A stretch of 37,548 nt of DNA from a virus. Its lineage: Duplodnaviria; Heunggongvirae; Uroviricota; Caudoviricetes. Every line of letters starts with the position of its first letter. Within the stretch, counting starts at the first letter, position 1. The notes under the pieces were generated by a model that had not been told where the DNA came from, made no database searches, and saw nothing but the letters and a program-made list of their open reading frames with translations. A program made the position numbers and the translations under genes. Of this stretch, positions 4,176 to 37,548 are shown in pieces. Location of the stretch: the IMG/VR virus record IMGVR_UViG_2636416131_000002; one strand, given 5' to 3'.

Positions 4176-4232
4176 AAAAGGGCGGCAGAGCAGTCACGGA
4201 GTAAAACTGATACCGCCAAACGTCACCAGAAA
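4176..4232 (-). ncRNA. dicF: DicF small RNA (Hfq-dependent, ftsZ-targeting) with its intrinsic terminator
   Basis: Reverse complement of 4176-4232 reads TTTCTGGTGACGTTTGGCGGTATCAGTTTTACTCCGTGACTGCTCTGCCGCCCTTTTT, matching DicF as I recall it; GC stem followed by a U run. Confidence 0.9.
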
Positions 4233-4470: not shown

Positions 4471-4499
4471 ATCCTTAAAATCACCACAGTTTTAAGGAT
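4471..4499. repeat. Perfect 10-bp inverted repeat ATCCTTAAAA / TTTTAAGGAT with 9-bp spacer
   Basis: Read directly. Lies at the stop of the minus-strand 205-aa ORF and 11 nt upstream of the plus-strand ORF at 4510. No U tract follows on either strand, so not a typical intrinsic terminator. Confidence 0.6.
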
Positions 4500-5067
4500 T
4501 CATTAAGCAATGTCGCAACCACCAATAAATCCGCTTAAGAACATGAAAATTGATTACTGGTATAAAGCTCTTACAGTTGTTGGCGCTGCGTTGTTTGTCT
4601 TTAATGGAACGTCTTTTTTTGACAGATATCCCGTTGTTCCATTGGGTTTTTTGTCCTCCGGCATCTTTTTTATTGGTTTGGGGGAGTGGATTAATCACCC
4701 TCTCATAGTGAGATTTATTGGTCCTGGAGTTTGGACTCGTGGATATAATCGTTCTTCGTGCGCACTCGGTATCATCTTCGACATACTTGGTTGTTTCCTG
4801 ATTGTTACAGGAGTCGTCAAGTTCTTCTGATGTAAAACCGCAAATGGGGCACGTAACGGGAATTTTGAAAAGCGTTTCTCCGGGTTCCAGAACAAAATTT
4901 TCTGCGGTCTGATTTTGCTTCTCATATTTGTGCTCCGCGTCATTGTGAGAGCACATTCTTATTCTGAGTGCCTGTTTAAACTCACTGAAGCTGAGAGCTT
5001 CTTCGCCTTCGGCAAGGCCTTCGAAGTATTCTTCGTAAGCCTTTTCCATGATTGTGTCGAAATCCAT
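4492..5067 (-). CDS. Hypothetical protein with YdfB-like N-terminus (MDFDTIMEKAYEEYFEG…); frame stays open 191 codons
   Basis: AGGTGA ribosome-binding site before the ATG at 5067, directly after the upstream gene's stop. N-terminal ~80 residues look protein-like; the C-terminal ~100 residues are N/K/R/S-rich and overlap the plus-strand membrane ORF. Confidence 0.4.
   Translation of the reverse strand: MDFDTIMEKAYEEYFEGLAEGEEALSFSEFKQALRIRMCSHNDAEHKYEKQNQTAENFVLEPGETLFKIPVTCPICGFTSEELDDSCNNQETTKYVEDDTECARRTIISTSPNSRTNKSHYERVINPLPQTNKKDAGGQKTQWNNGISVKKRRSIKDKQRSANNCKSFIPVINFHVLKRIYWWLRHCLMNP
4510..4830 (+). CDS. Putative small inner-membrane protein (about 3 predicted transmembrane helices), antisense to the leftward operon
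   Basis: 106-aa ORF with three hydrophobic stretches (ALTVVGAALFVF; GFLSSGIFFIGLG; ALGIIFDILGCFLIVTGVV). AAGGA 11 nt upstream of ATG. Fully overlapped by the minus-strand ORF 4492..5109; only one is likely real here. Confidence 0.35.
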   Translation: MSQPPINPLKNMKIDYWYKALTVVGAALFVFNGTSFFDRYPVVPLGFLSSGIFFIGLGEWINHPLIVRFIGPGVWTRGYNRSSCALGIIFDILGCFLIVTGVVKFF

Positions 5068-5068
5068 A

Positions 5069-5224
5069 TCACTCACCTGAGTTTCTTTCCAGCCAGCGAC
5101 GGGCACCATTTTCGGTTTTAAACGTTTTGCTTTTGGTATACGTCATCGCGGTGAACGTGCCGTCCTGGTTGGGGAACACGCCACATACCAGAGATTCGCT
5201 GTTGCCAAGATCGATAGTATCCAT
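5069..5224 (-). CDS. YdfA / YdaF-like small protein (51 aa)
   Basis: MDTIDLGNSESLVCGVFPNQDGTFTAMTYTKSKTFKTENGARRWLERNSGE, GAGGT ribosome-binding site upstream, first gene after the leftward promoter. Length matches the K-12 ydfA/ydaF paralogs. Confidence 0.6.
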   Translation of the reverse strand: MDTIDLGNSESLVCGVFPNQDGTFTAMTYTKSKTFKTENGARRWLERNSGE

Positions 5225-5300
5225 GCTGACCTCATTTCCCCTTAACGCCGGGGTAGCGGAACTGTTTGCTGAGAACACCGTGCGGTGTCTTGATGGAGGT

Positions 5301-5329
5301 AATTTAGTTTTCTCATTATTTTTCGTCAA
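5301..5329 (-). promoter_or_regulatory. Early-left (PL-like) promoter: -35 TTGACG, 17-bp spacer, -10 TAAATT, read on minus strand
   Basis: Hexamers read directly with 17-bp spacing, about 75 nt upstream of the ydfA-like start and flanked or overlapped by two copies of the operator motif. Confidence 0.45.
5303..5316. promoter_or_regulatory. Operator copy 2 (TTTAGTTTTCTCAT), overlaps the -10 of the PL-like promoter
   Basis: 12 of 14 positions match the palindromic operator at 5875-5888 when read on the opposite strand (ATGAGAAAACTAAA). Confidence 0.45.
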
Positions 5330-5338
5330 GTTTTTTTG

Positions 5339-5352
5339 ATTAGAAAACTCAA
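5339..5352. promoter_or_regulatory. Operator copy 1 (ATTAGAAAACTCAA), just upstream of the PL-like -35
   Basis: 12 of 14 positions match the palindromic operator at 5875-5888. Confidence 0.45.
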
Positions 5353-5416
5353 GTGTTGGCGCAAGATAAAGCCAATACATTGAAATGTAAGGCTTTAAAA
5401 TTTTGTGAAGGGATGA

Positions 5417-5824
5417 TTATTGATGCTTGTTGCGTTTGCGAGCCTCTAATAGCTCGGTGAACAGGCGATTAAAATTCTCAACGCGGGCGCGGAGTTCGCT
5501 GAGTTGTGCTTGTTGCTCTGATTTAGGAAGTGCGCGATACAAACGCAGCATCTCTAACTCATCTTCCGATAAGTCTAAGGCACTATCGAGTGAAACAGGG
5601 GGAGCTGGTGTTTTGTCCTCGTCGCCAAACAGTATCCAAGTTGGTGAACATTGCAATACCTCGGCGAGGCGATGCAAATTTTGCCCGCGCGGGGCTGTAT
5701 GGTCACTTTCCCATAATGAAATTGATGAGCCAGATACGCCAGCAGCTTTGCTTAAACCGTTTTGACTTAAGCCTACCTGCTTACGTCTTTCTCTAATGCG
5801 TTGACCTAAAGTTTTCTCGTTCAT
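5417..5824 (-). CDS. dicA: DicA / RacR-family HTH (XRE-type) prophage repressor, 135 aa from the internal ATG
   Basis: HTH region QVGLSQNGLSKAAGVSGSSISLWE and the motif LQCSPTWILFGDEDK, which I recall from DicA. Divergent from a Cro-like gene. An in-frame upstream ATG at 5875 (152 aa) sits inside the operator palindrome and could serve a leaderless transcript. Confidence 0.7.
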   Translation of the reverse strand: MNEKTLGQRIRERRKQVGLSQNGLSKAAGVSGSSISLWESDHTAPRGQNLHRLAEVLQCSPTWILFGDEDKTPAPPVSLDSALDLSEDELEMLRLYRALPKSEQQAQLSELRARVENFNRLFTELLEARKRNKHQ

Positions 5825-5845
5825 ATTTAGATATCTTAATAACCC

Positions 5846-5875
5846 TTGACTTGAGATTCCTTGAGTGATTAGCAT
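5846..5875 (+). promoter_or_regulatory. Early-right (PR-like) promoter: -35 TTGACT, 18-bp spacer, -10 TAGCAT
   Basis: Hexamers read directly; the -10 abuts the perfect palindrome at 5875-5888; Cro-like ATG at 5902. Confidence 0.4.
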
Positions 5876-5888
5876 TGAGAAAACTCAA
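5875..5888. promoter_or_regulatory. Perfect 14-bp palindromic operator TTGAGAAAACTCAA
   Basis: Read directly. Lies between the divergent repressor and Cro-like genes; two further TTGAG half-sites at 5851 and 5861. Confidence 0.6.
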
Positions 5889-5901
5889 TATTGGAGGTGC
5901 G

Positions 5902-6129
5902 ATGTTTAAATCAGACGTAATTAATTTTTACGGTACGAAAGCCAAAGTAGCGAAAGCTGCTGGCGTTGACCCATCTGCTGTTTCTCAATGGCAAGAGCTG
6001 GTTCCTGAAGGTCGCGCGATGCGTCTACAGGAGGCATCTGGCGGCGAGCTTCTGTATGATCCCAAGGTTTATGACGAATATCGTAAGACGAAGCGGGCGG
6101 GGCGGTTGAACAATGAAAATCACTCCTGA
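5902..6129 (+). CDS. Cro-like small HTH regulator (DicC / YdaS type), 75 aa
   Basis: MFKSDVINFYGTKAKVAKAAGVDPSAVSQWQ… HTH, divergent from the repressor, GGAGG ribosome-binding site. The ORF track starts it at an upstream in-frame codon (5875). Confidence 0.7.
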   Translation: MFKSDVINFYGTKAKVAKAAGVDPSAVSQWQELVPEGRAMRLQEASGGELLYDPKVYDEYRKTKRAGRLNNENHS

Positions 6130-6634
6130 ACAGGCTCGTGAGGCTCTGGATGCCTGGATATGTCGACCAGGAATGACACAGGAGCAGGCGACGATATTAA
6201 TCACTGAAGCATTCTGGGCTTTGAAAGAGCGCCCGAACATCGATGTTCAGCGTGTCACAGATGAAGGTGGCGCGGTTGATCAGCGAGCACTTGGCGTTAA
6301 TCGAGTGAAGATATTCGAACGCTGGAAGGCTATCGACACCAGGGATAAGCGTGAAAAGTTCACGGCGCTAGTGCCTGCAATTATGGAGGCTATTCGGATT
6401 AATGATTTCAGGTTGTATCGTGAAATTAGTGACGGAAAAAGCATCACGTACATGATCGCCGGGTTAAACAAAGAATATGGCGATGTGGTGGAGTCCGGAC
6501 TGCTTTTTGCTGATCCTGCCGTAGTGGATCGTGAAACTGACGAACTTATAGAAAAAGCAATTGCTTTCAAACTTGCGTATCGACAGCAATACCAACAAAA
6601 AGCTGGATGGAATTATGAGCCTTCTTTTTGCTGA
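6113..6634 (+). CDS. YdaT-like protein (CII-position regulator), 173 aa
   Basis: Follows the Cro-like gene with overlapping stop/start, as ydaS-ydaT do in Rac-type immunity regions. Family call from position and recalled similarity. Confidence 0.55.
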   Translation: MKITPEQAREALDAWICRPGMTQEQATILITEAFWALKERPNIDVQRVTDEGGAVDQRALGVNRVKIFERWKAIDTRDKREKFTALVPAIMEAIRINDFRLYREISDGKSITYMIAGLNKEYGDVVESGLLFADPAVVDRETDELIEKAIAFKLAYRQQYQQKAGWNYEPSFC

Positions 6635-8040: not shown

Positions 8041-9640
8041 AATGTCCCCAGACAATTCTCTGGGGGATTTTTCATGATCAAAGAGACTGTTACGATGAGT
8101 CATAAGGAACTCCACCGACTTCAGATTATTCAGGAGTCAATTAATCGACATATTACTCAGGAACAAGCTGCGGCACGCATTGGCATTTCTATTCGGCAGG
8201 TTAAACGTCTGGTGCAACGGTATAGAAATGAAGGGCCTTCTGGTCTGGTTTCCCACCGACGTGGAAAGCGTCCTAATAATTCCTTTTCTACTGAATTCAG
8301 AGCAACAGTAATTTCACTCCTCAAAGGCCGTTACGCTGATTTTGGACCTACGTTTGCGTGCGAAAAATTGCGCGAGATACACGGTTTATCTTTATCCGTT
8401 GAAACTCTCAGAAAGTGGATGATAGAAGAGGGGTTATGGCGTGAACGCCGTCGTAAAATTGCCCGTATATATCAACGCCGCATGCGACGACCATCTTACG
8501 GTGAACTGATCCAGATTGATGGCTCACCTCATGACTGGTTTGAAAATCGAGGCCCCAGATGTACACTGATCGTTTTCATTGATGATGCCACCAGTGCGTT
8601 GATGGCGTTGCGTTTTGTGCCTGCTGAAACAACCCGGGCTTACATGGAAACCCTCCGGGGTTACCTTAATGATCATGGCGTACCGCTCGCTCTCTACTCT
8701 GATAGACACAGTATATTCAGGGTAAATAACCCAGAGCGGGAAGGTGAGCTGACCCAGTTCACTCGTGCGATAAAGACACTGGGCATCGAGCCAATCCATG
8801 CCAACAGCCCGCAGGCAAAAGGGCGGGTAGAGCGCGCCAATCAGACACTACAGGACAGGCTGGTCAAAGAAATGCGGCTTCAGAATATCAGTGATATTGA
8901 AACAGCAAATGCATGGTTGCCGACCTTTATTGAAGCCTATAACAACCGGTTCGCTACGTCGCCTCGTACTACTGATAATGCTCATCTTGATGTGCACCAT
9001 TCTGAAGAGGAACTGGGTTATATCTTCAGCCTACAGGCGAAGCGCGTTCTGTCTAAAAATCTCACTTTCCAGTACAAAAGCAGTGCGTTTCAGGTACGCA
9101 GTGAGGGCCGGGGATATCGACTTAGGCATTCAGTTGTTACTGTATGTGAGAACTTTGACGGTGAAATTAACGTTCTGTATGACGGGAAAGCGCTGGGCTG
9201 GGAAAAGTATGTTGATGGCCCGGAGCCTATACCACTGGATGATGAAAAGAGTGTCCATGAACGAGTGGATAATGCCCGTATTGATTTACGCTCAAAATAC
9301 TATGTTAAATCTAAAGCTGACCATCCCTGCTTACGCGCCGAACGCAAAGTCATCAGTAAGTTAAGCCCCCGAAGTTACCTAAAAAGAAGCCTGATCCCGA
9401 TAAAATAGATTGAAACCAAGATCGATTCGGTTGAGTGCATATCCATTCATAGGGTAGATTCTTAAGTCGCGTTTCTGGTGTTCATTTTCGGGTGGTTTGT
9501 TACTTGTTTTACCGGGGATATGCCAGAAACGCGCTGAGTCAGTCTGGGCGGTGCGCGTAATGAGGCGTTATGGTAAATAGCCTATGCTAATGTCCGCTAA
9601 GAGCAAGAAGCGGAAGTTGGCAGTTTTGTGGACTGTCCCC
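8041..9640 (+). mobile_element. Insertion sequence carrying the 444-aa transposase; ends not resolved
   Basis: Transposase gene interrupts the replication / nin region. I could not identify terminal inverted repeats; TGTCCCCA occurs in direct orientation at 8043-8050 and 9634-9641 and might mark a target duplication. Boundaries are approximate. Confidence 0.3.
8074..9408 (+). CDS. DDE transposase (rve / integrase-core type), 444 aa, N-terminal HTH
   Basis: N-terminal HTH (ITQEQAAARIGISIRQVKRLVQRY), central integrase-core-like region with conserved D/E residues, size and layout typical of single-ORF IS481 / ISNCY-like elements. Family not resolved without search. Confidence 0.8.
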   Translation: MIKETVTMSHKELHRLQIIQESINRHITQEQAAARIGISIRQVKRLVQRYRNEGPSGLVSHRRGKRPNNSFSTEFRATVISLLKGRYADFGPTFACEKLREIHGLSLSVETLRKWMIEEGLWRERRRKIARIYQRRMRRPSYGELIQIDGSPHDWFENRGPRCTLIVFIDDATSALMALRFVPAETTRAYMETLRGYLNDHGVPLALYSDRHSIFRVNNPEREGELTQFTRAIKTLGIEPIHANSPQAKGRVERANQTLQDRLVKEMRLQNISDIETANAWLPTFIEAYNNRFATSPRTTDNAHLDVHHSEEELGYIFSLQAKRVLSKNLTFQYKSSAFQVRSEGRGYRLRHSVVTVCENFDGEINVLYDGKALGWEKYVDGPEPIPLDDEKSVHERVDNARIDLRSKYYVKSKADHPCLRAERKVISKLSPRSYLKRSLIPIK

Positions 9641-11684: not shown

Positions 11685-11936
11685 ATGATGAACATCGAAG
11701 AACTGCGTAAAATTTTTTGTGAAGATGGCCTCTATGCTGTGTGCGTTGAAAATGGAAATCTTGTTAGTCATTACCGCATTATGTGTTTGCGAAAGAATGG
11801 GGCTGCGTTAATTAATTTTGTGGATGCTCGGGTCACGGACGGATTTATCTTGCGCGAAGGTGAGTTTGTCACTTCATTACAGGCATTGAAAGAGATCGGA
11901 ATAAAAGCTGGCTTTTCTGCTTTTTCAGGAGAATAA
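11685..11936 (+). CDS. rem: Rem-like protein, 83 aa
   Basis: 83-aa ORF between the relBEF terminator and ydfU, matching the position and length of Qin rem. Confidence 0.6.
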   Translation: MMNIEELRKIFCEDGLYAVCVENGNLVSHYRIMCLRKNGAALINFVDARVTDGFILREGEFVTSLQALKEIGIKAGFSAFSGE

Positions 11937-14732: not shown

Positions 14733-15032
14733 AAAAATTCCTTAATACTGATAACTTGGCGCACTATACACACGTTCCTGAAGAAAGCTATAGTTTTTTG
14801 ATGGGGTTGAAGATGGCTGGATGTCTAAAATAAACATTGCTTCATATGTTCAACTATGCGTTAATGATTGCGTCGGTTTGAAGAACAGACGATATACGAA
14901 GTAGTTTACTAAAGCAGTTCTCATTTCAGGTGTTATTCATTTATTCCTTCTTTGAGTCTCTCCAATTAAGTACGAAGTCGTTTCTGTTATGCAAACCATT
15001 TATGCCGAAAGGCTCAAGTTAAGGAATGTAGA

Positions 15033-15248
15033 ATGTCAAATAAAATGACTGGTTTAGTAAAATGGTTTAACGCTGATAAAGGTTTCGGCTTTATTTCTCC
15101 TGTTGATGGTAGTAAAGATGTGTTTGTGCATTTTTCTGCGATTCAGAATGATAATTATCGAACCTTATTTGAAGGTCAAAAGGTTACCTTCTCTATAGAG
15201 AGTGGTGCTAAAGGTCCTGCAGCAGCAAATGTCATCATTACTGATTAA
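15033..15248 (+). CDS. cspB: Cold-shock protein CspB, 71 aa
   Basis: [71 protein letters not shown]. Confidence 0.95.
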
Positions 15249-15528
15249 AATTCATCGCTCGTCTGTATACGATAACGAAGAAGGCTGATGCCTGAGTAGA
15301 GATACGGACAGAGTAGTGAATATTGGATTTCTTTAATAAAAATTAAGGAGGTCCAATACATGAAACAATGGCCAGCATATTTGGCAAAATCTTAATCAGG
15401 AAAAGTATGCTAACCATTGTGGTGAAGTGCAGGTTTGCTGCATGAATAGTTTTACAGCAGAAGCTAACTGCTGGCATGGCAAAACAAAGTGCGTAAGTGG
15501 ATGACTCCCACAAAAAGCACCACAATCT

Positions 15529-17557: not shown

Positions 17558-17921
17558 GGTAATATTAAATCGGAACATTTACATCGCGGAATGTAAAATT
17601 TAAATAAAAAGGACTCTTCCATGAGCCAAAATTCCTGAAATCTTAAGGGTAAGATAAAAGGTCTTAATCAGAATGACACGTTATTATTAATAAATAAAGC
17701 TATTCTTTCATTGCTGTGTTTTTCTTTACAAAAGTAATCCTTGCTATGGGTGGTTAATCATGCGTTAATGGTGTTCTGGTTTGTTACAAATTTATCTGAA
17801 GCAGTCATTGTTATAATTTTATTATTTGTACCTCTTGAGATTTCCTTGTTGGTTTTTCTCTCTGATATTTTTTTTTCGGACCATTCTGCCCAAGGGCTAA
17901 TTTCTTCAAAAGGTAATAATT

Positions 17922-18134
17922 ATGTCTAACAAAATGACTGGTTTAGTGAAATGGTTTAACCCTGAAAAAGGTTTTGGTTTCATCACGCCGAAAGATGGCA
18001 GCAAAGATGTGTTTGTCCATTTCTCAGCAATTCAGAGCAACGATTTCAAAACATTAACTGAGAATCAGGAAGTTGAATTTGGTATTGAGAACGGACCTAA
18101 AGGTCCTGCCGCTGTTCATGTAGTGGCGCTTTGA
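17922..18134 (+). CDS. cspI: Cold-shock protein CspI, 70 aa
   Basis: [70 protein letters not shown]. Confidence 0.95.
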
Positions 18135-18339
18135 GGTAGACAATATTACAAACCATATTCACTTTAGATGCCCGTGTTGTCATGGTTCCCAGTATAGAAC
18201 ATCATCTTTTGATGTTTCTGACATGAATCCTTTCGGGGCAAAATGTATCTTTTGTAAATCAATGATGATTACATTTGATAATATTTCACAATACTTAAAT
18301 GCCAGCCGTCTGTCGTTGGATTTAAAAAAGTGAAAATGA

Positions 18340-35604: not shown

Positions 35605-37548
35605 ATGGGTAAAGGCAGCAGTAAGGGGCATACCCCGCGCGAAGCGAAGGATAACCTGAAATCCACGCAGTTGCTGAGTGTGATCGATGCCATCAGCGAA
35701 GGGCCGGTTGAAGGTCCGGTGGATGGATTAAAAAGCGTGCTGCTGAACAGTACGCCAGTGCTGGACAGTGAGGGGAATACCAATATCTCCGGCGTCACGG
35801 TGGTGTTCCGGGCCGGTGAGCAGGAGCAGACACCGCCGGAGGGATTTGAATCCTCCGGCTCCGAGACGGTGCTGGGTACGGAAGTGAAATACGACACGCC
35901 GATCACCCGGACCATCACGTCGGCAAACATTGACCGACTGCGTTTTACCTTCGGCGTGCAGGCACTGGTGGAAACCACCTCAAAGGGGGACAGGAATCCG
36001 TCGGAAGTCCGCCTGCTGGTTCAGATCCAGCGTAACGGTGGCTGGGTGACGGAAAAAGACATCACCATTAAGGGCAAAACCACCTCGCAGTATCTGGCCT
36101 CGGTGGTGGTGGGTAACCTGCCGCCGCGCCCGTTCAATATCCGGATGCGCAGGATGACGCCGGACAGCACCACAGACCAGCTGCAGAACAAAACGCTCTG
36201 GTCGTCATACACCGAAATCATCGATGTGAAACAGGGCTACCCGAACACGGCACTGGTCGGCGTGCAGGTGGATTCGGAGCAGTTCGGCAGCCAGCAGGTG
36301 AGCCGTAATTATCATCTTCGCGGGCGCATTCTGCAGGTGCCGTCGAACTATAACCCGCAGACGCGGCAATACAGCGGTATCTGGGACGGAACGTTAAAAC
36401 CGGCATACAGCAACAACATGGCCTGGTGTCTGTGGGATATGCTGACCCACCCGCGCTACGGCATGGGGAAACGTCTTGGTGCGGCGGATGTGGATAAATG
36501 GGCGCTGTATGTCATCGGCCAGTACTGCGACCAGTCGGTGCCGGACGGTTTTGGCGGTACGGAGCCGCGCATCACCTGTAATGCGTACCTGACCACACAG
36601 CGTAAGGCGTGGGATGTGCTCAGTGATTTCTGCTCGGCGATGCGCTGTATGCCGGTATGGAACGGGCAGACGCTGACGTTCGTGCAGGACCGGCCGTCGG
36701 ATAAGGTGTGGATCTATAACCGCAGTAATGTGGTGATGCCGGATGATGGCGCGCCGTTCCGCTACAGCTTCAGCGCCCTGAAGGACCGCCATAATGCCGT
36801 TGAGGTGAACTGGATTGACCCGAATAACGGCTGGGAGACGGCGACAGAGCTTGTGGAGGACACGCAGGCCATTGCCCGTTACGGTCGTAATGTCACGAAG
36901 ATGGATGCCTTTGGCTGTACCAGCCGGGGGCAGGCACATCGCGCCGGGCTGTGGCTGATTAAAACAGAACTGCTGGAAACGCAGACCGTGGACTTCAGCG
37001 TGGGCGCAGAAGGGCTTCGCCATGTGCCGGGCGATGTCATTGAAATCTGTGATGATGACTATGCCGGTATCAGCATCGGCGGGCGCGTGCTGGCGGTAAA
37101 CAGCCAGACCCGGACGCTGACGCTCGACCGTGAAATCACGCTGCCATCTTCCGGCACCACGCTGATAAGCCTGGTTGACGGGCAGGGGAGTCCGGTCAGC
37201 GTGGAGGTTCAGTCCGTCACCGACGGCGTGAAGGTGAAAGTGAGCCGTGTTCCTGACGGCGTTGCTGAATACAGCGTATGGGGGCTGAAGCTGCCGACGT
37301 TGCGCCAGCGCCTGTTCCGCTGCGTGAGTATCCGTGAGAACGACGACGGCACGTATGCCATCACCGCCGTGCAGCATGTACCGGAAAAAGAGGCCATCGT
37401 GGATAACGGGGCGCACTTTGACGGCGACCAGAGCGGCACGGTAAATGGTGTCACGCCGCCAGCGGTGCAGCACCTGACCGCAGAAGTCACCGCAGACAGC
37501 GGGGAATACCAGGTGCTGGCGCGCTGGGACACGCCGAAGGTGGTGAAG
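35605..37548 (+). CDS. J: Tail tip / host-specificity protein J (lambda gpJ-like), N-terminal 648 codons; continues beyond window
   Basis: Frame from the ATG at 35605 is open to the window end; translation begins MGKGSSKGHTPREAKDNLKSTQLLSVIDAISEGPVEGPVDGLKSVLLNSTPVL, which matches lambda J as I recall it. Missing from the ORF track because there is no stop in the window. Confidence 0.9.
   Translation, partial: MGKGSSKGHTPREAKDNLKSTQLLSVIDAISEGPVEGPVDGLKSVLLNSTPVLDSEGNTNISGVTVVFRAGEQEQTPPEGFESSGSETVLGTEVKYDTPITRTITSANIDRLRFTFGVQALVETTSKGDRNPSEVRLLVQIQRNGGWVTEKDITIKGKTTSQYLASVVVGNLPPRPFNIRMRRMTPDSTTDQLQNKTLWSSYTEIIDVKQGYPNTALVGVQVDSEQFGSQQVSRNYHLRGRILQVPSNYNPQTRQYSGIWDGTLKPAYSNNMAWCLWDMLTHPRYGMGKRLGAADVDKWALYVIGQYCDQSVPDGFGGTEPRITCNAYLTTQRKAWDVLSDFCSAMRCMPVWNGQTLTFVQDRPSDKVWIYNRSNVVMPDDGAPFRYSFSALKDRHNAVEVNWIDPNNGWETATELVEDTQAIARYGRNVTKMDAFGCTSRGQAHRAGLWLIKTELLETQTVDFSVGAEGLRHVPGDVIEICDDDYAGISIGGRVLAVNSQTRTLTLDREITLPSSGTTLISLVDGQGSPVSVEVQSVTDGVKVKVSRVPDGVAEYSVWGLKLPTLRQRLFRCVSIRENDDGTYAITAVQHVPEKEAIVDNGAHFDGDQSGTVNGVTPPAVQHLTAEVTADSGEYQVLARWDTPKVVK

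Follow-up and report, generated by a model that had tools for sequence, protein, structure and literature searches.

Positions 5301 to 5888 of the window, as we call the whole 37,548-nucleotide stretch of viral DNA that was analyzed, very probably form the imm region of a lambdoid Escherichia coli prophage of the Qin/mEp460 type and, to judge from the sequence, encode a heteroimmune DicA/DicC variant that is collinear with P22 immC. This assignment draws on sequence anatomy, family membership, conservation, and covariation, each of which we observed directly. The locus is an ordinary addition to a well-known kind, with a P22-like site layout and a different recognition sequence, and it leaves the current understanding of lambdoid switches unchanged. 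We annotated the following features.

5069-5224, minus strand: ydfA (DUF1391), first gene of the leftward operon (Pfam; RefSeq annotation)
5301-5329, minus strand: leftward early promoter (PL/dicBp-like), TTGACG (5329-5324), 17-bp spacer, TAAATT (5306-5301) (promoter scan)
5303-5316, minus-strand reading: OL1 operator, predicted from motif match, conservation, and P22 position
5339-5352, no strand: OL2 operator, predicted on the same three grounds
5417-5824, minus strand: DicA-type repressor gene, 135 aa, with a P22-c2-like HTH N-terminal domain and a DicA-specific C-terminal part
5825-5840, no strand: Oa/OR3-like palindrome ATTTAG-ATAT-CTTAAT (ATTTAGATATCTTAAT), adjoining the repressor ATG
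5833-5838, minus strand: predicted -10 (TAAGAT) of the repressor maintenance promoter (P22 PRM analogy and conservation)
5846-5875, plus strand: rightward early promoter (PR/dicCp-like), TTGACT (5846-5851), 18-bp spacer, TAGCAT (5870-5875) (promoter scan)
5851-5864, no strand: Om/OR2-like degenerate site TTGAG-ATTC-CTTGA, a weak candidate on the cro promoter -35
5875-5888, no strand: Oc/OR1-like operator TTGAG-AAAA-CTCAA, predicted main repressor site
5902-6129, plus strand: Cro-like/DicC-family gene, 75 aa, P22_Cro fold family, with Shine-Dalgarno GGAGG at 5893-5897
6113-6634, plus strand: YdaT-family (CII-like) gene downstream of cro (Pfam; function by analogy with CP-933P YdaT)
11685-11936, plus strand: rem, which encodes the DicA antirepressor in K-12 (83 of 83 aa identical to K-12 Rem)

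A 14-bp site family on both early promoters

The initial annotation had described one 14-bp operator family in three copies on both early promoters, and a scan of the window bore this placement out. The full-match copy, TTGAGAAAACTCAA, lies at 5875-5888 (plus strand), and the two 12/14 copies reported at the leftward promoter are indeed there: ATGAGAAAACTAAA at 5303-5316 (minus strand), which overlaps the -10 hexamer TAAATT, and ATTAGAAAACTCAA at 5339-5352 (plus strand). At two or fewer mismatches, these were the only three matches on both strands of the 37.5-kb window, compared to 0.36 expected, and none of 100 shuffles reached three; allowing three mismatches added a single unrelated match. 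All three sites are intergenic, within the 192-bp and 77-bp stretches that flank the repressor gene. In a position weight matrix (PWM) scan of the whole window, trained on a set that included the three sites themselves, they ranked at the top with 21.8 to 26.7 bits versus a maximum of 18.2 bits in 200 shuffles, and no further copy exceeded that chance maximum. The fourth-best match, at 10.8 bits, was an apparent extra copy within the repressor gene at 5806-5821 (AACGAGAAAACTTTAG) that shares the 9-mer GAGAAAACT; it is absent from Buttiauxella, which has GAAATGACG there, and we treated it as fortuitous codons.

The full-match copy had been called a perfect palindrome, which is incorrect. The reverse complement of TTGAGAAAACTCAA is TTGAGTTTTCTCAA, and the 14-mer consists of perfect 5-bp arms around an asymmetric, non-self-complementary AAAA center; with the flanking bases, the arms extend to 6 bp (ATTGAG/CTCAAT). 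The A-tract center is present in all three strong sites. A relaxed search of the window for TTNAG-N4-CTNAA added the OR3-like site and a GC-centered match at 36769 and nothing else. The count of three copies holds for the strong sites but is probably too low, as collinearity with P22 points to the weaker OR3-like (5825-5840) and OR2-like (5851-5864) sites as well.

The repressor and its start codon

The repressor had been proposed to be of the DicA type within an immunity region, and profile searches agreed: it scored 239.4 bits on the NCBIfam model NF007257, "transcriptional repressor DicA" (cutoff, 101), over residues 1 to 135 of 135. It is 56% identical to K-12 DicA overall and 43% identical in the DNA-binding part. 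Residues 1 to 72 align residue for residue with the N-terminal domain of P22 c2 (phmmer versus PDB: 1adr, E = 8e-16; 2r1j, E = 4e-15), while the C-terminal 63 residues are DicA specific, and a Pfam search of the protein returned HTH families only and no Peptidase_S24. The recognition helix reads SGSSISLWE, with S33 and L37 paired with the half-site TTGAG. The adjacent Cro-like protein scored 165.3 bits on the DicC model NF007282 (cutoff, 130; residues 1 to 75 of 75) and matched Pfam P22_Cro with an E value of 3e-16.

A leaderless start at 5875, inside the operator, had been suggested for the repressor and would produce a 152-aa protein. The reading frame is open back to 5875, this long form is annotated in the HannyBb phage record, Buttiauxella has the same upstream ATG, and lambdoid repressor mRNAs are often leaderless. 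However, the DicA model (1-135 of 135) and the P22 c2 N terminus (residue 1 to residue 1) both align from ATG5824, PGAP annotates the 135-aa form, and most other DicA-type loci lack an in-frame upstream start. ATG5875 is changed to ATA or AAG in 11 of the 84 same-type loci described below, whereas ATG5824 is invariant. Moreover, the minus strand has no promoter-like site upstream of 5875, and the homologous starts lie just ahead of the short-form ATG, 3 nt before it for K-12 dicA and, with a PRM -10 of TAAGAT, 4 nt before it in the annotation of P22 c2. We therefore consider translation from 5875 very unlikely. The leaderless idea was right in kind, given the leaders of K-12 dicA and P22 c2, but was attached to the wrong start codon. 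No Shine-Dalgarno sequence precedes ATG5824, and TAAGAT lies 9 to 14 nt upstream of it. Because this -10 (5838 to 5833), which is kept in four genera, is conserved, we predict a repressor transcription start near 5826-5827, probably giving ATG5824 a 2- to 3-nt leader by analogy with these relatives.

Organization of the rightward and leftward control regions

On the cro promoter, the Oc/OR1-like operator extends from about -7 to about +7 and includes the final base of the rightward -10 together with the predicted +1 (~5882). TTGACT and the repressor ATG are equally far apart here, in P22, and in some 12 DicA-type loci. The OR2-like 18-mer ACTTGAGATTCCTTGAGT (5849-5866) is collinear with P22 OR2 (ACTAAAGATTCCTTTAGT), and the ATTC center is common to both; its right half-site matches at only 3 of 5 positions, and 3 of its 14 positions are changed in Buttiauxella. 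We considered the direct CTTGAG repeats at 5850-5855 and 5860-5865 as separate operators, but they are better read as halves of the degenerate OR2-like site; they are kept only in part in Buttiauxella. The OR3-like palindrome includes the -10 of the predicted repressor promoter.

On the other side of the repressor gene, the leftward promoter, predicted from its sequence, has a predicted transcription start at about 5294 and would drive ydfA, DicF, dicB, ydfD, and an exonuclease gene. DicF was found at 4180-4231 (Rfam, 76.7 bits) and DicB by an NCBIfam profile search (132.8 bits), and the order ydfA...DicF-dicB-ydfD downstream of the repressor gene agrees with the RefSeq annotation of a 99.8% identical locus. 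OL1 takes in 10 bp of the PL spacer and four of the six -10 bases, and OL2 is located upstream of the PL -35 at a distance of 9 bp. Their centers are 36 bp apart, as they are in Buttiauxella; at 3.4 helical turns, this spacing does not obviously favor cooperative binding. The majority OL2 allele in other genomes is ATGAGAAAACTCAA (13/14), and the T5341 allele of OL2 in the window is shared by the E. coli C7 group. At the place of OL3 in the P22 layout, 24 to 29 bp beyond OL2, there is a hairpin and no site-like sequence. Reading the conserved PL leader as nutL gave no boxA match to P22.

Conservation of the sites

A search of viral contigs gave loci of this one immunity type only, 96 to 100% identical, and supplied 84 same-type loci (51 distinct sequences); diverse immunity types came from a search of genome contigs. 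With a column scored as polymorphic when its minor allele occurred at least twice, 1 of 58 columns inside the four sites was polymorphic versus 42 of 211 in the other intergenic DNA (Fisher p = 2e-4, a value that overstates independence, since the sequences are related). Oc had no variable column among the 51 distinct sequences, and the bases adjoining it (5872-5874 and 5889-5891) vary. The OR3-like palindrome showed no variation in the 84 loci, and OL1 showed singleton variants only. Part of this conservation could reflect promoter constraint, since OL1 and the OR3-like site overlap promoters; OL2 and the downstream half of Oc, being outside the hexamers, are less open to this explanation. 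Buttiauxella, whose repressor is 74% identical, keeps Oc (13 of 14 positions), OL1, and OL2 with unchanged spacing amid diverged intervening DNA; OL2 there is TTGAGAAAACTCAG despite the diverged spacer DNA.

The resemblance among the sites might instead be due to chance, to AT-rich promoter sequence, or to an old OL/OR duplication, with no recognition by a protein. The sites are AT rich and sit on promoter elements, and OL2 and Oc share flanking letters (TGATTAG... and ...TTGG). This explanation is nevertheless highly improbable given the excess of matches over expectation with none elsewhere in the window, the scarcity of polymorphisms inside sites with variable bases next to them, the retention of the sites in Buttiauxella between diverged flanks, and the different repeated palindromes that other immunity types carry at the same places.

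Covariation of the sites with the repressor helix

A common layout with different half-sites was found in three heteroimmune E. coli types, in about 12 types from eight genera, and in P22. Next to the repressor ATG is a palindrome, followed by TTGACT and by a strong palindrome over the -10/+1 region; in OL, two sites 35 to 36 bp apart flank the -35. The 14-bp family of the window occupies the places of operators established by experiment in K-12 Qin and in P22, with Oc/OR1 over the -10/+1 of the cro promoter and OL1/OL2 to either side of the PL -35. Repressors with the helix xHV(T/S)(I/V)SQWE go with the half-site TGTTAG(A/T), and those with (G/D)SSISLWE go with TTGAG. The OR3-like palindrome followed another protein: 14 to 16 of its 16 bases are kept in the Buttiauxella, Citrobacter, and Superficieibacter loci with the Cro helix SAVSQW, where the repressor helix and Oc differ, and the four loci with this Cro helix and the OR3-like site fall into two Oc classes that track the repressor helix. 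We predict that the OR3-like palindrome is the preferred site of the Cro-like protein.

These patterns bear on which protein reads the A-tract sites. Which HTH protein reads a given site is not evident from its sequence alone, and in K-12, the strongest DicC chromatin immunoprecipitation sequencing (ChIP-seq) peaks, with a palindromic motif, lie on both sides of dicA, as would suit a Cro/DicC-like protein as the main binder in place of the repressor. We consider this unlikely, since the Oc half-site covaries with the recognition helix of the repressor and not with that of Cro, K-12 Oc is bound by DicA, and the 5+4+5 geometry fits the N-terminal domain of P22 c2. Lambdoid switches normally share sites between the two proteins, so the distinction is a matter of degree.

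A YdaT/CII-like protein or a host nucleoid protein as the reader of the sites has very little probability. A YdaT-family gene does follow cro, YdaT of CP-933P binds an inverted repeat, and H-NS and Cnu modulate DicA binding in K-12. However, the target of YdaT in CP-933P is a PRE-type promoter located between ydaS and ydaT, and the motif that it recognizes is TTGATT-N6-AATCAA; we rejected YdaT as the binder on the position and motif of this target. Moreover, from one immunity type to the next, the sites differ in step with the repressor helix, but the sequences on the YdaT side are conserved.

Comparison with known switches

In gene content, the locus is close to Qin of K-12, with which it shares the NCBIfam DicA and DicC families, a 135-aa repressor, ydfA, DicF, and dicB downstream, a cro gene and ydaT/ydfX-side operon upstream, and an identical rem. 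Both have a strong palindrome on the dicC -10, a palindrome adjoining the repressor ATG, two sites flanking the leftward -35, and no Shine-Dalgarno sequence before the repressor ATG. They differ in the recognition helix (SGSSISLWE here, SHVSVSQWE in K-12) and in the operator, which is TTGAG-AAAA-CTCAA (14 to 16 bp) here and TTGTTAGT-TATG-ACTAACAA (20 bp) in K-12. K-12 Oc (TTGTTAGTTATGACTAACAA) overlaps the dicC -10; DicA binds it in vivo, and one base substitution is enough to eliminate this binding. From Oc, DicA activates dicA and represses dicC; 5' RACE placed the dicC start at the promoter homologous to PR here. In the in vivo assay, Oc was bound by DicA but Oa and Om were not. DicC gave ChIP peaks on both sides of dicA, and dicBp is repressed by DicA, a repression that Rem relieves.

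In site architecture, the locus resembles P22 immC. Both have a 5-bp half-site, 4 central bp, and a second 5-bp half-site, and their OR regions are collinear, with center spacings of 25 and 24 bp here versus 25 and 23 bp. The PR -35 (TTGACT), the PRM -10 (TAAGAT), and the PL -10 (TAAATT) are the same in both, the PL -35 lies between two operators, the OL1-OL2 centers are 36 bp apart here and 35 bp apart in P22, and OL2 is AAAA centered in both (TTTGAAGAAAACTTAAAT in P22, at the same position). P22 c2 recognizes the half-site TTAAG, leaves the central 4 bp uncontacted, packs V33 on the methyl groups of TTAA, and binds an A-tract center about 3-fold better than ATAT. Unlike in P22, the half-site here is TTGAG, contact or nearby residues are changed (N32G, V33S, Q37L, E44A, N46R, and E48Q), and a DicA-type C-terminal part replaces the S24 autocleavage and cooperativity domain. 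An OL3-like site was not found here, and the OR2-like site is degenerate. By these sequence criteria, the repressor is not of the c2/LexA type, although its mode of action should resemble that of the P22 c2 N-terminal domain.

The likeness to lambda CI/Cro rests on layout and not on sequence homology: divergent repressor and cro genes, operators on PR, PRM, and PL, a leaderless-type repressor mRNA, and bistable logic. Lambda has three adjacent 17-bp sites, cooperative filling, and a RecA-cleavable repressor, whereas the repressor here is short and noncleavable and apparently has one strong OR site. CP-933P of O157:H7 (PaaR2, YdaS, and YdaT) is likewise a lambdoid switch; its repressor gene is leaderless, YdaT is its CII analogue, and it has a Cro analogue as well as palindromic repeats in OR and at PL. 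It differs in its PaaR2 repressor family, its 18-bp palindromes with the consensus half-site GTTTAGTAA, and an embedded toxin-antitoxin pair.

Proposed switch

Homology and conservation lead us to infer repressor binding, its order of occupancy, the transcription starts, and activation as follows. A repressor dimer would bind the 14-bp sites through its P22-c2-like HTH, with the half-sites TTGAG and CTCAA flanking a 4-bp center that the protein probably does not contact. In OR, repressor on the strong site at 5875-5888 would block the cro promoter. In OL, repressor on 5303-5316 and 5339-5352 would cover the PL -10, the spacer, and the sequence immediately preceding the -35, and this occupancy would silence ydfA, DicF, dicB, and the genes beyond. 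The repressor gene would be transcribed from a weak promoter with its -10 inside the OR3-like palindrome; by analogy with K-12, repressor at Oc may activate this promoter, and the Cro-like protein on the OR3-like palindrome may shut it off. The repressor lacks a domain that RecA could cleave, and the prophage would be induced through the Rem antirepressor or through spontaneous or stress-driven switching. Rem is a likely induction route for a noncleavable repressor, by analogy with K-12.

A more tentative idea, which we think has a minor chance of being correct, is that each of the two regulators, the repressor and the Cro-like protein, has an operator class mostly to itself, in contrast to lambda, where the two compete for every site. 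The repressor may occupy the A-tract TTGAG sites (OR1, OL1, and OL2), and Cro may occupy the ATAT-centered TTTAG/CTTAA palindrome of the repressor promoter. This idea is suggested by the tracking of the OR3-like site with the Cro helix in four genera and of Oc with the repressor helix and by the failure of K-12 DicA to bind Oa or Om. As a further part of it, one identical Rem may act on heteroimmune DicA variants, which would make cross-induction of coresident Qin-type prophages possible.

Distribution and uses

The locus would gate the expression of DicF and DicB, with their effects on cell division inhibition and phage resistance, as well as prophage induction. The operator map and the corrected start codon aid annotation, since some phage records carry the 152-aa form, and the map aids reporter design and the prediction of homo- or heteroimmune coresident prophages. 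P22 c2 (V33/Q37, TTAAG) and the repressor here (S33/L37, TTGAG) represent a natural specificity swap in an otherwise collinear control region, which could serve studies of HTH recognition. Unlike Qin of K-12, the element is not confined to cryptic prophage: the immunity type is present in at least two functional phages (mEp460_ev081 and HannyBb), and of 5,426 complete E. coli genomes, 797 carry at least 80% of the 1-kb region around it.

Locus identity and relatives

The minus-strand open reading frame (ORF) ending at 5417 encodes an HTH_3 protein (Pfam) that aligns with the NCBIfam DicA model over its full length (239 bits, 1-135/135), and the gene at 5902-6129 (+) belongs to the P22_Cro/DicC family (Pfam and NCBIfam; 165 bits, 1-75/75), which confirms the initial annotation of a DicA-type repressor with a divergent Cro-like gene. 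A YdaT-family (CII-like) gene comes next after the Cro-like gene, and leftward of the repressor lie ydfA (DUF1391) and dicB (NCBIfam), with the DicF sRNA in between (Rfam; 4180-4231, minus strand). The gene order matches the RefSeq annotation of the O26:H11 copy, and an 83-aa ORF at 11685-11936 (+) encodes the DicA antirepressor Rem, with 100% identity to the K-12 protein. The 1-kb region is 99.8 to 99.9% identical in many E. coli prophages and 99.3 to 99.5% identical in HannyBb and mEp460_ev081, both functional phages; 797 of 5,426 complete E. coli genomes contain at least 80% of it. From these gene families, relatives, the gene order, and Rem, we conclude that the region is a Qin-type DicA/DicC immunity locus, Qin being the K-12 cryptic prophage. 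Systems of this kind are already well known (Qin DicA/DicC, P22 immC, and lambda) and hold no surprise for a specialist. The literature that we found contains no operator description for this immunity type, which is mentioned there just as the dicAC genes of mEp460_ev081. The practical value lies in a map of the operators in a prophage type that is very common in E. coli, a corrected repressor start codon, and a naturally occurring specificity variant built on the P22 c2 fold.

Predicted operators and promoters

With up to two mismatches permitted, the 14-mer at 5875-5888 has only two further matches on either strand of the 37,548-bp window. These three copies compare with 0.36 expected, and 0 of 100 dinucleotide-preserving shuffles reached three; permitting three mismatches added a single, unrelated match. 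A consensus promoter scan over 5000-6200 predicted two promoters.

Motif copies and promoters
5875-5888, Oc (OR1-like): TTGAGAAAACTCAA
5303-5316, minus strand, OL1: ATGAGAAAACTAAA
5339-5352, OL2: ATTAGAAAACTCAA
Rightward cro promoter (PR): TTGACT 5846-5851, 18 bp, TAGCAT 5870-5875
Leftward early promoter (PL): TTGACG 5329-5324, 17 bp, TAAATT 5306-5301

The OR copy starts at the final base of the rightward -10. One OL copy, as originally noted, lies on the leftward -10, and the other is a short distance upstream of the -35. The 14-mer is not the perfect palindrome that had been described: its arms, TTGAG/CTCAA (ATTGAG/CTCAAT with flanks), are perfectly complementary, but the AAAA center, common to all three strong sites, is not self-complementary.

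We compared 84 loci of the same immunity type, representing 51 distinct sequences. Positions 5875-5888 and 5825-5840 contain no variable columns, while columns 5872, 5873, 5874, 5889, 5890, and 5891 vary. A minor allele seen at least twice occurs in 1 of 58 columns within four sites versus 42 of 211 in other intergenic DNA (Fisher P = 2e-4, an indication and no calibrated probability since the sequences are related). OL2 is polymorphic: the window shares T5341 (ATTAG..., ATTAGAAAACTCAA, 12/14) with the E. coli C7 group, and 84/84 other loci (IMG/VR, phage, and O26) have G (ATGAG..., ATGAGAAAACTCAA, 13/14). Over 4718-5978, the window departs from E. coli C7 only at T5331, in the run of Ts that separates OL2 from the -35. 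Buttiauxella gaviniae, whose repressor is 74% identical, has corresponding sites (Oc, TTGAGAAAACTCAg; OL1, ATTTAGTTTTCTCAAT; OL2, ATTGAGAAAACTCAGT) with the OL centers 36 bp apart, as in the window; the 20 bp separating its OL sites have diverged, as has the promoter spacer.

Collinearity with P22 immC

Repressor residues 1 to 72 align one to one with the P22 c2 N-terminal domain (E = 8e-16), and the control regions, with P22 features taken from the annotated P22 record, are collinear.

Counterparts in P22 and the window
OR3, adjoining the repressor ATG: P22 AGTTAAGTCATCTTAAAT; window ATTTAGATATCTTAAT (5825-5840)
OR2, over the PR -35 (TTGACT in both): P22 ACTAAAGATTCCTTTAGT; window ACTTGAGATTCCTTGAGT (5849-5866)
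OR1, over the PR -10: P22 ATTTAAGTGTTCTTTAAT; window ATTGAGAAAACTCAAT (5874-5889)
OR center spacings: P22 25 and 23 bp; window 25 and 24 bp
-10 of PRM, the repressor maintenance promoter: TAAGAT in both (window 5838->5833)
PL -10: TAAATT in both
OL1-OL2 center spacing: P22 35 bp; window 36 bp
OL2: P22 TTTGAAGAAAACTTAAAT; window GATTAGAAAACTCAAG

The earlier count of three copies is probably too low, as the collinearity points to more than three operator-like sites in the region. The P22 repressor consensus, ATTTAAGATATCTTAAAT, has TTAAG half-sites and four central bp without protein contact; V33 packs against the methyl groups of TTAA, Q37 touches a base, and E44 and E48 are close to the central minor groove (PMC5175364). 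An A-tract center improves binding about 3-fold over ATAT and about 13-fold over a G/C center (PMC4267663). The window 14-mer has exactly this 5+4+5 core, with TTGAG replacing TTAAG, and its asymmetric AAAA center is as expected for an indirectly read, uncontacted center and is no argument against a dimer site. At P22-corresponding positions, the window repressor has G32, S33, S34, L37, A44, R46, and Q48; a specificity swap in which V33 and one thymine methyl (A to G) were both lost is plausible.

Comparison with other DicA-type loci

Relative to K-12 DicA, the repressor is 43% identical in the DNA-binding part (residues 1 to 56), 94% in the linker, and 57% in the C-terminal part. Alignment of the window, K-12 Qin, and PPompW types showed a shared anatomy and unlike repeated palindromes, and by this measure the window locus is heteroimmune to K-12 Qin.

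Strong OR palindromes
K-12 Qin (Oc): TTGTTAGTTATGACTAACAA
PPompW: CCTTAGGAAAATCTAAGG
Window: ATTGAGAAAACTCAAT (5874-5889)

DicA binds K-12 Oc in vivo, and one A-to-C change abolishes binding; Oc shares bases with the -10 of the mapped dicC promoter, and DicA at this site represses dicC and activates dicA (PMC3441716). The dicBp promoter, upstream of ydfA, is likewise repressed by DicA (PMC10448788), and the strongest DicC ChIP-seq peaks flank dicA on both sides (PMC11430063).

Scanning a single genome from each species gave 20 DicA-type loci spanning Escherichia, Citrobacter, Buttiauxella, Superficieibacter, Symbiopectobacterium, Rahnella, and others. Once oriented, they form about 12 specificity types on a common plan: at OR, a palindrome adjoining the repressor ATG, a TTGAC(T) -35 lying about 21 bp away from the same codon, and a strong palindrome over the -10/+1 of the cro promoter; at OL, two palindromes with centers 35 to 36 bp apart, either side of the leftward -35. 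The half-site tracks the repressor recognition helix, xHV(T/S)(I/V)SQWE pairing with TGTTAG(A/T) and (G/D)SSISLWE (window and Buttiauxella) with TTGAG.

Weaker sites

The OR3-like palindrome at 5825-5840 (half-sites TTTAG/CTTAA, ATAT center) is invariant within the immunity type. Buttiauxella, Citrobacter braakii, and Superficieibacter, whose Cro helix is (P/R)SAVSQW as in the window, retain 14 to 16 of the 16 bases. Because the site is kept even in the two of these whose repressor helix and Oc are unlike those of the window, its conservation suggests a Cro-preferred site. It includes the repressor promoter -10, so occupancy would stop repressor synthesis. The OR2-like core at 5851-5864 (left half perfect, right half 3/5) differs at 3 of 14 positions in Buttiauxella and is a weak candidate operator; the equivalent K-12 sites, Om and Oa, were not bound by DicA in an in vivo assay (PMC3441716). 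A candidate at 5806-5821, inside the repressor gene, was rejected as not conserved.

Repressor start codon

The repressor ORF is open as far as an ATG at 5875 (152 aa), which the initial annotation proposed as a leaderless start. The HannyBb record (PP925841, L002 3218-3676) annotates this 152-aa form, probably an over-extension across the operator region; RefSeq/PGAP gives 135 aa. The DicA model and P22 c2 align from residue 1 of the ATG5824 form, most other DicA-type loci lack the in-frame upstream start, and codon 5875 is ATA or AAG in 11 of 84 same-type loci, in which ATG5824 is invariant. The consensus scan found no promoter-like site upstream of 5875 on the minus strand. ATG5824 has no preceding Shine-Dalgarno sequence; the K-12 dicA transcript starts 3 nt before its ATG and is classed as leaderless (PMC4681348, Table S3), and the P22 record places the PRM start 4 nt ahead of the c2 ATG. 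The -10 TAAGAT shared with P22 predicts a transcript start at about 5826-5827. The leaderless proposal was therefore probably right in kind and wrong in its codon.

Proposed mechanism

The model below builds on what the analysis showed directly: the protein families, the site statistics, conservation and covariation, and positional homology with operators that have been defined by experiment. Dimers of the 135-aa repressor on OR1 would block the cro promoter over about -7 to +7, and dimers on OL1/OL2 would block the leftward promoter, silencing cro and ydaT rightward and ydfA, DicF, dicB, ydfD, and recE leftward. OR1-bound repressor may boost its own weak promoter, as reported in K-12, and the Cro-like protein would shut that promoter via the OR3-like site. 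Because the repressor lacks an autocleavage domain (Pfam), induction would be via Rem or by spontaneous or stress-driven switching, as in K-12. Rem has 100% identity with its K-12 counterpart even though the DNA-binding part of the repressor has just 43% identity with that of K-12 DicA; the repressor linker, residues 57 to 72, is 94% identical. A single antirepressor may thus act on what is conserved among heteroimmune DicA variants, in which case cross-induction between them would be possible.

Neighboring features

The 70-nt leader of the leftward transcript (5238-5288, minus strand, after the predicted PL start, about 5294, and before the ydfA ATG, 5224) is conserved over heteroimmune DicA-type loci and genera. 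Its sequence includes a box, CAGUUC(C/U)G, and then a hairpin, CCCC-GGCGUUAA-GGGG in the window, with compensatory stem changes elsewhere (CCCUG/CAGGG, GCCU/AGGC, CACCC/GGGUG, and GCCG/CGGC) and a GAAAGA loop in some loci. RNAalifold gave four pairs, three with compensatory changes, at a weak energy; Rfam had no match for the leader. It occupies the P22 nutL position but lacks a P22-like boxA. A second hairpin, at about 5368-5396 (minus strand), lies 20 nt past the repressor stop codon, where P22 has OL3, and is followed by AUCUU (minimum free energy, -12 kcal/mol for a 91-nt stretch; z = -2.6). This second hairpin is a possible terminator between the repressor transcript and OL2/PL.

Two long ORFs overlap on opposite strands between ydfA and DicF, neither with a Pfam match. 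The 205-aa ORF at 4492-5109 (-) is a CDS in the HannyBb annotation, and the RefSeq O26 copy has a partial ydfB pseudogene annotated where 4966-5067 would lie, at the start of this ORF; the 106-aa ORF at 4510-4830 (+) is hydrophobic and resembles a small membrane protein. Rfam also identified two cspA-type 5'UTR thermoregulators (cold-shock gene paralogues) at 14872-15264 (+) and 17775-18161 (+), as in Qin. A 444-aa transposase ORF at 8074-9408 (+) follows the DUF977 gene; the O26:H11 copy has an IS1202-like ISEsa1-family transposase annotated at this position, which marks an IS insertion in the early-right region of the prophage.
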